Shown here piece after piece: positions 952 to 9,400 of a DNA stretch of 64,000 nucleotides. The position numbers were made by a program, and so were the translations under genes. Under the pieces are notes generated by a model. That model was given only the letters and a program-made list of their open reading frames with translations, ran no database searches and had not been told where the DNA came from. The DNA comes from Paraspadella gotoi. Its lineage: Eukaryota; Animalia; Chaetognatha. The stretch covers positions 12,203,866 through 12,267,865 of the forward strand of contig CM119265.1 of the NCBI GenBank assembly GCA_051294375.1, given 5' to 3'. The stretch's first letter is position 1; every line of letters starts with the position of its first letter.

Positions 952-2954
952 ATGTCGTGGTTTCCCAAAGACATCTTCTCCATCTTCAGCGAGAACGACT
1001 TTCTCGACGACGGGACGGACCGCGCCCACCGGATCTACTTTCCGCTCTTTCTTTTAGCTTCGTGCACCGTGCTGGGGATCAAGCAGTTCGCAGGGGATCC
1101 CATAGACGTGAGGATGAGGGACAAAAAGGGGGGCGAGGGGGAATTTTAGTGGGTGGCGAAAGGGCCGAAATAATGTTCAGTTTTAACTGTGTGTGTTCAC
1201 TGTTCAGTGAAAAATCAAAAATTTACAAATCACATGGGGGTAAATAATTATCTGTCTCGACCCTAAAAATAGAATCATGATTCATATAAAATCGATTTCG
1301 CTCGATTTAATCTAAAAAAAACTATCAAAAATATTATTAACTGCTCCCTTAGTGCTACACGGACGTCTCGCAAAAGGACTACGTTGACAATTACTGTTGG
1401 ACCGCGTCAACGTATCAACTTCTGAAAACGGACTACGATGTATTTCGTCTTCCCGTCAATACCGACGTCTATTTACCGGGTAAGCTTTTTAAGAGAAGGG
1501 AGTGGCTACAAAAAGTATCATTCATGGAAAGATATAGACATTGAAATTCCACGTGTTCATTTTTCAATTTATTTTCTACTTCTTTCATTTCTTGTTTTCT
1601 TAATTGTCGCTACGTCAATTCTTATAAAAAGGATTCAAAACTTACAAGGAAGTAAAAAGCATTGACGGAAAGACTCATTTGTTGCCAGGTGAGACTTAAA
1701 AGTGATATTCAAATTCTTACTTGTACTACAAAAGCAGTTGTTTTAAAAATTCATTCATTAAATTTAAAATAAAATTCTCATTATTTATCTTTTTAATGCG
1801 TAAGTAGCGACTCTCACCGAAGGTAAGTTGATTTAAACCGACGAGAAGAGAGAACGTTTCATGTCTATTGACTGACTTTTACTAAATCGATACATCTTCT
1901 CTATTCTTTTTTTCCACGACTTTCTAAAGGCAAGGAACACTTGATTCCGGGTAAAATACATTCAAATGAAAATCTCAAAACGAAATTAACATTAATACAT
2001 ACCTAACATATTATAGAACCGTTAGGACTTACTCTAAAACCGTTATTCAGGATATACATCATTTTCCTTGTTTTGGCTTTCTTTTCCTTTTCCTTTGTAA
2101 AATTCTTTTATCACGTCCTGTTCTGTCGTTTATGCTATCCGACCCGCTATACTTTAGGCAAGGAAGCTTTGATCTCTGGTAAGTTCGGTAAGTTGTTAAA
2201 CTATCAGTTATATCAAAAAACTTGTTCTTAAAACTCACCTTTTCTTCCAACCCCGCAATTTTTTTTTTTATGCTTGCCAGGCAAGGAACATTTACTTACT
2301 GGTAAATATGGTTTAAAACACATTTTTTTCTGAGATTAGACTTGGATATTAAATTCATATAAAGCTTCAGCTTAAAAAACGTCGTCATTCTCAAGAATTG
2401 AGAATGTACTGAGATTGATCGCTTTGACGATGCATTGCATAATGACAACAACAAAAAATCCGAAATGCTCTCCTACTTATCTACTACTCAACTTAACATA
2501 CTCATCTTTCCATTCCGCCCTTTTTTGCCCAGTTTTTCTCTTTTGCTTTCAAAATTTAATATCCAGATTTATAAAACCATCTCTAACAACTCGAACCGAC
2601 CAATTCTGAAAACCCTCGCCACGCCCCCGAACCCACCCCCCCCCCCCACCCCAACGTCCCCTCTCAACCAGACCGGACCTTCTCCAACTCGGCCGCCGCG
2701 GATTCCATCCTCGACGGAGAGAAGGTCTTCGTGTCCTACTACCAGTGGGTCCCGATCTTGGTGGCGATCCAAGCCGTTCTCTTCCACGCCCCTTACGTCG
2801 TCTGGTGGACCTTCTCGAAACGGGGCGGCTTGCATCTCCCGCATCTGATGTACGGTGAGTGTCCGGTTTCTTTTCAGGTGTATTGGATTTTTGGTGAGGA
2901 AAGTATTTTTTGATCCTGCAATAGATTATTGAATGACCTTGAATTTTGTAATTT

Positions 2955-2986
<32 letters not shown>

Positions 2987-3276
2987 TCCTTCTTTTGTAA
3001 TACTTACTTTTTCTGTCCTTACCCTTTCCTTACCATTTCCATCCCCAGGCTCATACTGTCTGGCCAAAGTCCAAACGAATCCCATAGCGCGCGACACTCA
3101 GAAGAAGGATGCGGCCTACCTGCTGGATCTCTACTTTCAGGACAACTTGAGGGCACCTGCTCCCAGGGGGTTGAGACGGATCATCCCCCGCAAGATGCAT
3201 CTCACTCTGCTCTATTTCTTCGTCAAATTACTGTTAGTAGTGGGACATGCTCTCTCTCTCTTTCTCTCTCTTTCTT

Positions 3277-3337
<61 letters not shown>

Positions 3338-4673
3338 TTCTTTTTCCCGACTAACTTTGACTTTTCTTTATTCAGTTACATCGCAAACGTCATCTTTCAA
3401 CTGGGATGCTTGCATTCCTTTCTTCAAGTCAACATCCTTTCCTACGCACTGGACGTTGTAAAGACTGTCATTTTTGGCCAGGTGTGTAAATCATTGATTA
3501 AAATTCATTCTGTGTTATAAAAGTTTATAGAGTATTTATTTGGAAGTCAAAAGTCGTCGATGTTCAGATTGATAATTATGTTTATTTTAAAAAAATATTT
3601 TTCCATTTTTTTTTTATTGATTGGTTGACAGATTGTTGAAATTATTTCGTACACCTGATACGTTAATGAACGGCTTAGTAATCAGCCTTAAAATTATTTA
3701 CTGAATTACTTACCAATATTTTCCCACCCGACAGAAATGGCTGATGTCGCCACGTTTTCCGATCCGAACTTTGTGCGAATTCCGCGGATCGCCTCAAGTT
3801 AGTTTCACTGTTAAATACGTATTCTTTCATGAATATCTAAATGGTGAGCAGGGATTAGGAAGCTCAGCTTTGTGGGTTAGGTTGATAAAATGAAGATAAC
3901 CCGATTAACAGAATATTGCTTAAGTTTCCCCACGCTATCACTTTGCACGCTCGCCTCTCGGCACTCAGGTTCACGGGTACTTGCTGCCGCACACCTGCCA
4001 CTGCGTTCTGCCCATCAATCTGTATAACGACAAGTTCTACGCGGTCATGGTGATCATGATGTTGATTCTCCTCCTCGGAACCTTCTTCAGCATCTTCGTC
4101 TGGGCCGGCAGGTTGGCAGGCGGCGATATTGTCTTTTATTGTTTTTAATTACTAAGTGATTGATCATTTTAATCGTGTTTTTTGTTTTATTTACAGATTG
4201 TTTTACAAGGGAACAGCTAATTCGTTGATTAAGGAATTGGTCACAGAAAAGGACGAAAGCTACGTAAATGGGTAAATCATAAGAGGCATATTAGGCAAAG
4301 ATGCACCAGTAAAAAACTTCCTTTCCACCTCTTCATTCGCCCCCCCCCCACTCCTCTTTTCCTCTTCAGCTTCATCAACCAGTATCTCCGATCTGACGGA
4401 CTCTTCGTCCTCAATCTCATCTACAAGAACGTGGGAAGCGGCACGGGCAAAGAGATCGCCTCCAGTCTCTACGAGAAATACAAGGCGGCCATGGCCTGCG
4501 ACTCTTCCTCCGAGGACAGCATCGAGAAGCAGCCGATGCTGCCGTCGCCCAAACCCGCCATCAACAACAAGCAGCTGCGGTGCAACAACTGCGGCAACCC
4601 CTGGTCGGCCAAGGACGAGGGCAAGACCTGCTCCAAGTGCAAGTCCATCCTCAAGTCGATGACGCCCGTGTGA
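952..4673 (+). CDS. Innexin (gap junction/hemichannel protein), about 14 exons
   Basis: Exons 952-1107, 1353-1479, [1632-1688, 1805/1808-1822, 1930-1950, 2158-2178, 2281-2301], 2672-2854, 3049-3232, 3376-3481, 3735-3797, 3969-4111, 4197-4271, 4370-4673, all GT-AG and phase-consistent. Innexin hallmarks: DDGTDR..KQFAGDPIDC, YVDNYCW, SYYQWVP..QAVLFHAP, KLLYIANVIFQL, FPIRTLCEF, CVLPINLYNDKFY, FINQYLRSDGLFVLNLI..N. Confidence 0.95.
1632..2301 (+). other. Cluster of five symmetric phase-1 small exons/microexons (57, 18/15, 21, 21, 21 nt) in innexin extracellular loop 1
   Basis: Each is flanked by AG and GTRAG/GTAAA, has length divisible by 3, is open in frame; three start GCAAGGAA and encode GKEHLIP, GKEALIS, GKEHLLT; the 57-nt exon ends GKTHLLP. 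Confidence 0.8.
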
Positions 4674-6499: not shown

Positions 6500-9400
6500 T
6501 CAAGGTCCCTTCGGTCCGTTGTCCCCCTGTCGTCCGGGCACGCCCCGAGGCCCCCTCGGACCCCGAGGCCCCATGGGTCCGATGTCTCCTTCGGGACCAG
6601 GAGGGCCGTTATAACCCCGCGGCCCTATGTCGTATTCGATTCGCGGAAACATGGGCGGCATGGGGGGCATGGGCGGCATGGGCGGAAACGGCGACATCGG
6701 CGGCATGGGAGGCCTCATGGGCAGAGGTGGCCGCATGGGTGGCCTACCGGGTCCTGAGGAAGAATAGAACAGAGAGAAAGGGAAGCGGTGATTGGTGATT
6801 ACATATAGGAAAGAAAAAAGACAGGACTCGTTAGCGAATAACGTAGATGCACATGCGCCGTGCGGGCGTAAAACTTGCATGTAGCATGCACGGAGCGTGA
6901 GCGGCTCTCGCTCCTTCATGCTATGGATGGCTCCACCTGGCATCCTTTGGACAAAGGAGTGAGGAAAGGATAGAGAAGGGAGGAAAAAGGAGGAAAAAGG
7001 AGAAAGAGAAAAAAGGTAAGGCCCAAAAGAAAGCATATAGAATTCTTGGATTACTTGATTGGAGAAAAGAAAAGCCCCGAAGAGACAGTTCCGCATTAAA
7101 GAGAGAGGGAGAGAGAGAGAGAGGAGAGAGAGAGGAGAAGAGAGAAGAGAGAGAGAGGAGAAGAGAGAGAAAGAGAGAGAGCGAGTGTCTGGCACCAACC
7201 TCCGCCAGCCAATCCCAAGGCCGAATCCGAGTCAAAGTTTCCTCGGTTGTCGGGAGTGGGGCTGGAGGTGGTTAAGGGAGTCGGGGTTCTGTGGGGACCA
7301 AGTCTCCCTTGTCGGTCGACTCGTTGGGGGCGTGGGTGGAGGGGGGCGCCAGGGTCGAGGCGTCGACGGCCGTGTTGGTCCGCGGCGTCGACGCCGTCAA
7401 CCAATCGGGCACATACTCGTAGGCGGAGGTGGTCTGGCCAAAGAACTGGGAACCGGAGCCCAGAAGCCCGATGAAGCCACCCATAGCCATTGGCAAGAGT
7501 CTGTGGTCCTCTGGCACCGACTCTTGGTATTACAAAGTGGAGGAAAAAGACCAGAAGAAGACAAAAACAGAAAGCTAAGCTTTAAGGAATTGAGAAATGA
7601 ATAATCTACGCATTGGGCTAAATTACTTCAGATCTAATTAAATTCTGGAATAAATTTAAATAATTCTGAATAATTTTGTGAGAAATGTTATCGAAATCAC
7701 AACTTTCGGCTAGACTCATTATCGTGAACCGAACGGAGTAATCGTCTGAAAAAATTATTTGAATAATTTGAGATGCGATTCGAAAGCGTAAGTGTTACAC
7801 CGCTTCATGTTGACTTTCTCGTAGGACAGAGGAGCATGAGTTAAATTTGTTTACCTGGTCGCTGAGGCCCAGAAGGAATGGAGTTTGTGCCCTGATTCCC
7901 AGGCTGAATTTGTCTCCTGAAAAATTTAAATTGATCGCTTTTTTTAAAACTTATTAAAATCATTTTAGAAAAATAAAAGAGTTTTTCTTACTTGCGATAG
8001 AAGTCGTCTCACGCTCAAAAAAAGTCATCCAGCCGGTTTAATAAAATTATCAAATTAAATTTAAAACTGTCTTATTAAAAAACTGTGTTGTACTTCAAAA
8101 ATCTAAACCGATGACAATTTTTAATTGCGACGACAGAGTTTAAGAACAGTTAAAAATATTGCTTGTTAGCGTGCACAAATTTAACTAAAATTTTCGAAAC
8201 AAAACTGTGGCGGACAAGTCGCCTTTTATTGTAAAATAAATAAATTAAGTGAAAATTACGTCATCAGCTTAGTTTGATTTGAACTATACACCACAGTTTC
8301 TTTTTAACGATAAAAAAAAAAGAATTTGAGTTAACTCATATGATTCTATTATTAGAATTATTACGTTTACAAGGAAATCATTGATAAACATAATAGTCAT
8401 AAATTACAATTTATAAAGGGCGAAAAACATCGGCTAAATTTCAGACGAGGCGTGATCACGGTCCCGGAGGCCCGTTGTCTCCTTGCTTTCCTGGCACCCC
8501 ACGGGGACCTCGAACCCCGCGCGGCCCGATAGGCCCGATCGAGCCCACCGGGCCGGGAGGGCCCGGAAATCCTATGGCCCCGTTCTCAAACTGATACTGG
8601 GGCTGCATGAAGTTCATAGTGGGCATCATAGGCATCATAGGGCTGTGAAATGAGAAGGGGGGGTTGGTTTGAAGAAAATCCATTGGATGCACGAGATCAG
8701 ACGTGATCGCAATTTAACGATTAAATCATCCGGTGAAAAAAATCCCACAAAAAAAAAGTGACGATAATACTGTAGTAATCGCTAAAGTGGCTAAATATTT
8801 CTTATCGATACTATAACAGAATTTGAACCATTTATTTCGCAAAACACTCGAAAGTCACGTAGTTTATAAACGAAACTTACCCTTGAGGCCTTCCGCCAAC
8901 TCCTTGTTGTCTTTGAAAGCCATTCATCATTCCCCATTGCCTCTTTTGTCTAATGGCACCCTCAGATCTGCGTCAAGTTTGTTGTTTTGTTTGTTTTTTT
9001 TTTGTTTTTTTTTTGAAATCGAAAAAGACGCGCGCATATTAAATATACGTATGTATATCACAAGTTTAGGTCCATAATAACGTTATTTTCCTCAGTGAGA
9101 AATCCGAAAATATCTTTCATCAATTGCTAATTTGCTTTATAGTACTTAATTTGGCACGCTAACAAGTATTTGTGAACAAAACACATTCACCTTCTAAAGT
9201 CTAAATTATGTCTTTTTACAGTAGTTTCTTGAGTAAATGAAATTGAATGTCGCCTCCGGTATTGCGAAAATGCTAACTTACCCTCCGCCAATCATTTGGG
9301 CACTCATTTGATTTTGAGCCGGTTGGTATTGGTTCCACCATCTTCGTGTCCGGTTGAGTACGACCCTGAATTTTGGATAAAAAATTAAGATTAATTGATG

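Follow-up and report, generated by a model that had tools for sequence, protein, structure and literature searches.

A tandem array of short exons in the first extracellular loop of an arrow-worm innexin gene

An innexin gene of the arrow worm Paraspadella gotoi contains, within the part that encodes the docking rim of the first extracellular loop (E1), one confirmed microexon (E) and four further well-formed exon candidates (A–D). This array is a real feature of the gene. Our preferred reading, to which we give a probability of roughly 0.55, is that heptads duplicated from the end of exon 2 are swapped one at a time in the outer lobe of E1, and that the swap tunes docking. Exons A–D of the five-exon cassette would then be likely alternatives, used singly in rarer cells or stages, and E, which has the strongest acceptor, would be the default. 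Replacement of E by C or D would change two or three of the seven residues at constant loop length, and inclusion of A or B would give a longer or different loop.

The innexin gene and its transcript

Coordinates refer to the window, that is, the whole stretch of 64,000 nucleotides analyzed (GenBank assembly GCA_051294375.1, contig CM119265.1, positions 12,203,866 to 12,267,865). The features of the gene are as follows:

397–399, + strand: trans-splice acceptor (AG at 397–398, mRNA start at 399, 553 nt upstream of the start codon)
952–4673, + strand: innexin gene; reading frame open over 453 residues with the contig joints applied
952–1107, + strand: exon 1, coding part (N-terminus, TM1); contig joint 1107–1353, Pfam Innexin match
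1353–1479, + strand: exon 2 (start of E1, E1 cysteines C53 and C67, first half of the outer lobe); contig joints, open frame, Pfam
1632–1688, + strand: candidate exon A, 57 nt, ending in the heptad GKTHLLP; strong donor, weak acceptor; skipped in the contig
1805–1822, + strand: candidate microexon B, 18 nt or, starting at 1808, 15 nt; outside the repeat family; top-scoring donor in the region
1930–1950, + strand: candidate microexon C, 21 nt, GKEHLIP; repeat member
2158–2178, + strand: candidate microexon D, 21 nt, GKEALIS; use of a second in-frame donor, at 2188, would extend it to 30 nt
2281–2301, + strand: microexon E, 21 nt, GKEHLLT; the only one included in the mRNA contig, as residues 95–101 of the 453-residue isoform
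2672–2854, + strand: exon 3 (second half of the outer lobe, YYQW motif, TM2); contig joint, Pfam, PDB match
3049–3232, 3376–3481, 3735–3797, 3969–4111, and 4197–4271, + strand: five further coding exons (cytoplasmic loop, TM3, E2, TM4); contig GT-AG joints, open frame
4370–4673, + strand: last coding exon (C-tail with CxxC-x12-CxxC end); contig joint, open frame, Pfam search

The transcript evidence consists of assembled contigs from one run (X1) of one study, and assembly loses rare variants. A contig of 1828 nt has seven GT-AG intron joints and an eighth joint across the microexon region, where it passes from 1479 through exon E alone to 2672 and skips A–D. Ahead of position 399 it carries 14 non-genomic letters that are absent from the 64-kb window and identical to the last letters of the chaetognath leader SL2, at its 3′ end, as given in Table 3 of PMC2481426; the contig is therefore a trans-spliced mRNA, and its leader points to a chaetognath. 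We treated run X1 as RNA on the strength of this spliced, leader-bearing contig, the run type being otherwise a guess. Neither outcome that would have refuted the original prediction is borne out: 1479 is not always joined directly to 2672, so that E is a real exon, and an mRNA with E alone means that the five are not all constitutive. No second isoform emerged when the X1 contigs were matched at 80% likeness, and runs X2 and X3 contained no contig of this gene.

Unspliced X1 contigs of lower depth extend over 1684–1836 and 1856–2628, covering the end of A as well as B, C, and D; they may represent nascent RNA, intron-retaining RNA, or DNA. One unspliced contig differs from the window by A>G at 2215 and a 1-nt deletion at 2259, which are probably allelic. 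Further innexin-like X1 contigs that match the window at 1379–1417, 2720–2753, and 2767–2805 are probably from paralogues. On the minus strand, at 6500–8650, lie exons with collagen-like Gly-X-Y repeats, convergent with the innexin gene.

The assignment to the innexins that had been proposed agrees with the presence of YYQW and with two database comparisons: Pfam PF00876 (Innexin) is matched by five of six exon peptides, two of which exceed the cut-off alone, and a sequence search of the PDB returned INX-6 as the sole match. A search with the exon 2 peptide found no homologue. With the predicted model of an orthologue, P0178 (pLDDT 77.5), the top five Foldseek matches were all INX-6, and the four-TM innexin fold is that of this model rather than of one made from the window's own spliced protein. 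The arrow-worm innexin resembles Caenorhabditis elegans INX-6 (PDB 5h1q/5h1r) in its fold (TM-score 0.70 over the target, P0178 model), in its two cysteines per extracellular loop, and in YYQW, but its outer lobe is much longer and it ends in a C-terminal CxxC-CxxC tail. In the E isoform, the cysteines are C53 and C67 in E1 and C273 plus C290/C292 in E2; the four equivalent extracellular cysteines are invariant across 34 homologues. The tail (window 4580–4650) closes with CxxC-x12-CxxC, a zinc-ribbon-like motif also found in four of the 22 homologues checked (P0178, P0011, P0175, and P0012). Pfam matches to the C-tail stayed below the cut-off and an atlas search gave no usable match. Such a tail is not known from other innexins.

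Five exon candidates and the origin of their heptads

Between 1479 and 2672, the original prediction had placed five frame-preserving, phase-1 exons. All five have AG/GT ends, phase 1, and the expected lengths of 57, 18/15, 21, 21, and 21 nt. Were the choice of candidates blind to frame, lengths that are all five multiples of three would be expected in 1 of 243 cases. The alternative lengths of B, which had also been noticed, come from an AAG-TAG acceptor pair whose second AG gives 15 nt; the accompanying variant count overlooked the second in-frame donor of D, 9 nt behind that exon. With this donor included, the 72 possible combinations are all free of stop codons and all distinct. Usual length cut-offs for microexons leave out a 57-nt exon, and A, which had been counted as one, is thus too long for the term.

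Two comparisons that take no account of frame single out these sites. Splice sites were scored with a generic matrix. By this measure, the seven best of the 44 GT sites in 1480–2671 are the exon 2 donor, the five candidate donors, and the second D donor; the acceptors range from −4.6 for A, the weakest, to 7.1 for E, with A, B, and D all at or below 0. Each of the five acceptors is preceded by 66–106 nt without AG. The remaining 2716 AGs of the window include 102 that follow an AG-free stretch of at least 66 nt; among the 42 AGs in confirmed introns that are not acceptors, there is one.

Exons C, D, and E all start with GCAAGGAA and form a three-copy repeat family, as had been predicted. An acceptor-exon-donor pattern has four matches in the 64-kb window, three of them exact and identical with C, D, and E, against 0.51 expected with up to two mismatches, a comparison that is generous as the pattern was derived from these same exons. 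In pairwise comparison, the three share 15–16 of 21 nt (71%–76%) and differ at no or one second codon position. Their 40-nt intron flanks share 5–16 of 40 nt (mean about 12), which is background. The proposed origin of C, D, and E by exon duplication fits both figures, and exon bodies that remain alike between flanks at background suggest selection on the three sequences.

The relationship of A and B to this family is different. B shares 3–7 of 21 nt with the repeat and is unrelated to it. The GKTHLLP at the end of A had been read as an echo of the other heptads, and at the protein level this likeness stands; at the nucleotide level, the last 21 nt of A match C or E at 12–13 positions and an unrelated exon end at 14, so that the match is no better than with an unrelated sequence. 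Homology of A as a whole to exon 2 was not significant (1731 and 668 of 5000 shuffles were as good).

Nucleotide support for an origin from exon 2 is weak, exon 2 and C sharing 10 of 21 nt. P0178 is the sister of the window protein (SH-aLRT 100 in a quick tree, 47% BLAST identity), and at the position of the exon 2 end it has GTDHLLS, which the heptads of A, C, D, and E match better than anything else in this protein of 504 residues. To judge from these alignments, the heptad was probably copied in tandem from the 3′ end of exon 2, together with its donor. At the position where exon 2 would meet exon 3, P0178 has three additional residues (100–102), which a 9-nt microexon could encode. No genomic copy of P0178 was present among the 51 loci of a metagenome scan. 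Three closer relatives, known only as short gene fragments (P0001–P0003), are 68%–85% identical to exon 3; judged by translation, the exon seems to begin with a phase-1 glycine in them, and its first 20 residues are strongly divergent. On such comparisons, the outer lobe is fast-evolving. We abandoned the idea of an intron in common with the P0011 family, since P0008 and P0009, to judge by their translations, seem to differ in phase.

Docking and the outer lobe of E1

The microexon insert, residues 95–101, lies between the second E1 cysteine (67) and YYQW (124). In INX-6, the same interval holds the E1 outer lobe (D87–V100), part of the docking interface (PMC7015682), and the predicted location of the exons in the first extracellular docking loop matches this site. 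According to PMC7015682 and PMC5146279, the INX-6 outer lobe is disordered in undocked hemichannels and becomes ordered on docking; it forms a cavity for the opposing E2 hairpin, and lobe and E2 hairpins together maintain the docking interface. In the P0178 model, the homologous loop (residues 84–114) has pLDDT <50, that is, it is predicted to be flexible with no defined shape. A heptad swap would alter the outer lobe, which forms a flexible rim around the cavity for the opposing E2 hairpin; its effect would be to adjust how strongly the channels dock or how stable the junction is, and not to impose a strict lock-and-key code. We favor this tuning over a strict partner code because E1 of INX-6 forms no hydrogen bonds across the junction, in the account given by PMC7015682, and because ShakB isoforms whose differences extend as far as TM2 are nevertheless able to couple with one another (PMC5412853).

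The same property of INX-6 is compatible with a role beyond docking, in hemichannel versus junction use, in trafficking, or in the binding of an extracellular partner, a possibility that we regard as rather unlikely. Connexin specificity resides in E2 (PMC7015682), and at 55 residues the arrow-worm loop is about twice that of most innexins retrieved (22–30 residues), so the heptad may project off the interface. However, a lobe that is ordered on docking only and that builds the cavity for the opposing hairpin speaks for docking itself. Nor is a glycosylation switch created: we found no N-glycosylation sequon in E1 of the 72 combinations, and such a switch was ruled out. The whole E isoform likewise contains none. 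Absence of extracellular sequons has been used as a criterion for junction-forming innexins (PMC8769644), by which the E isoform would be a candidate member of that class.

One exon at a time or several together

The segment from YCW to YYQW would measure 48 residues without any exon. Inclusion of B, C, D, or E would bring it to 54–55, of A to 67, and of all five to 94. It could be measured in 77 of 183 retrieved homologues, many of them near-duplicates, and is at most 57 residues long in 75 of these, the other two having 71–72. Among the 12 closest full-length homologues, 11 have 40–55 residues, and P0178, with 51, falls between no exon (48) and one (55). The homologue lengths therefore favor zero or one exon. 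Exons C, D, and E have the anatomy of a mutually exclusive cluster, being alike in phase and length, homologous, and located in the same protein segment; this holds for A in part and for B not at all. Within the X1 contigs, which lose rare variants, one of the five candidates (E) has a junction that bridges the others, and joints between two candidates are absent.

The known devices that would enforce a choice of one exon, common in mutually exclusive clusters without being required, were not found at this locus. All lengths are multiples of three, which leaves no exclusivity by frameshift, and all introns are GT-AG, with no U2/U12 clash. The introns measure 102–207 nt, and branch-point-like motifs lie 52 nt (B–C), 58 nt (D–E), and at least 159 nt (C–D) from the upstream donor; with the limit for a steric device set at 50 nt from branch point to donor, B–C and D–E are just above it. 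In a search for docker-selector RNA pairing across 28 segment pairs, a single one surpassed each of its 30 shuffles, which is about chance. This pair, a 14-nt inverted repeat (93%) joining 1447–1460 in exon 2 with 1661–1674 in exon A, is compatible with chance. Most validated human mutually exclusive clusters also do without frameshift, U12, and steric devices, as far as PMC5740500 describes them, and therefore their absence here weakens exclusivity and does not exclude it. Regulation by an RNA-binding protein is the remaining candidate for its enforcement.

The original prediction had proposed up to 48 loop variants by independent inclusion (72 with the second D donor). Cassettes combined in this way would lengthen the outer lobe stepwise. 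Every combination is open and distinct, neither a steric nor a frame nor a pairing barrier to joint inclusion was found, and the loop is predicted to be flexible and is highly variable among relatives. We nevertheless see no support for such a code and think it unlikely, since the only mRNA seen contains one exon, 75 of 77 measurable homologue loops (with many near-duplicates) are no longer than 57 residues against the 94 of full inclusion, and mutually exclusive clusters typically consist of homologous exons in tandem that agree in length and phase (PMC5740500, PMC9741552).

We hold it to be quite unlikely that E is constitutive and that A–D are spent duplicates, or rarely used cryptic exons, without a role. 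Splicing was seen for E only. No splicing of A–D appears in the X1 contigs, where the loss of rare variants in assembly means that this is no proof of absence, and the contigs that do cover B, C, D, and the end of A are unspliced. The low acceptor scores of A, B, and D point in the same direction, as does the donor of C, which is outscored by four of the 55 GT sites within confirmed introns. Against this, exon bodies and splice sites were kept while the flanking introns decayed to background, all candidates preserve the frame and lack stops, and weak acceptors with long AG-free zones typify regulated neural microexons (bioRxiv 10.1101/2021.02.24.432780). Should A–D prove unused, one ordinary constitutive microexon remains.

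Least probable, in our judgment, is a Dscam-like identity code, in which each cell class would use one heptad, matching or permitted isoforms would couple preferentially, and several electrical-synapse networks would arise from one gene.

The one-at-a-time reading has parallels in several systems. Clusters of tandem duplicated, mutually exclusive exons, of which Dscam1 is the large-cluster case (PMC5740500, PMC9741552), likewise consist of adjacent homologous exons of equal length and phase that encode the same surface segment, and here one default exon is seen; in contrast, the innexin units measure no more than 21 nt and stand among two exons of other lengths, and no frameshift, U12, steric, or docker mechanism was found for them. 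The Drosophila gene shaking-B, with isoforms ShakB(L) and ShakB(N+16), is also a single innexin gene whose isoforms differ in the first third including E1 (PMC5412853). There, however, the whole N-terminus up to TM2 is swapped and the isoforms dock and rectify, whereas in the arrow worm seven residues within the outer lobe would be exchanged, with no change in the parts that line the pore. Splice variation inside an innexin E1 is in fact already known from Limax innexin 11, where variants x1 and x2 have N85MT versus N85LS and unchanged downstream numbering (PMC8049302), but these are two variants of a glycosylated innexin, for which the available text describes no microexon array. Neural microexons of the eMIC/SRRM type (bioRxiv 10.1101/2021.02.24.432780) share with the candidates their shortness, preserved frame, weak 3′ sites, and long AG-exclusion zones. 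UGC occurs within 30 nt of the acceptors of B, D, and E (three of five) and is absent near A and C. Unlike in that class, AG-free zones also precede the constitutive exons of the arrow-worm gene, and the length fits B–E only.

No innexin with such an array of microexons or mutually exclusive exons was found in the largely open-access literature searched. The text of the chaetognath genome paper (PMC12460157) is silent on innexins and microexons, and three of its supplementary files are silent on innexins; PMC8580445, in its available part, reports no alternative splicing in its innexin. Among homologues, the length differences in nine members of the P0011 cluster and in 14 of 15 members of the P0030 cluster fall outside E1 and thus reveal no loop isoforms. 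The E1 array is apparently an undescribed variant of tandem-exon substitution, with a function that we infer.

How innexins choose their partners at docking is poorly understood. Natural isoforms that are two to three residues apart in a seven-residue patch of E1, with pore and E2 constant, would be a ready-made test of whether the outer lobe governs the strength or the specificity of docking. The locus also seems to show, in a little-studied phylum, how the end of a neighboring constitutive exon gives rise to a cluster of microexons.
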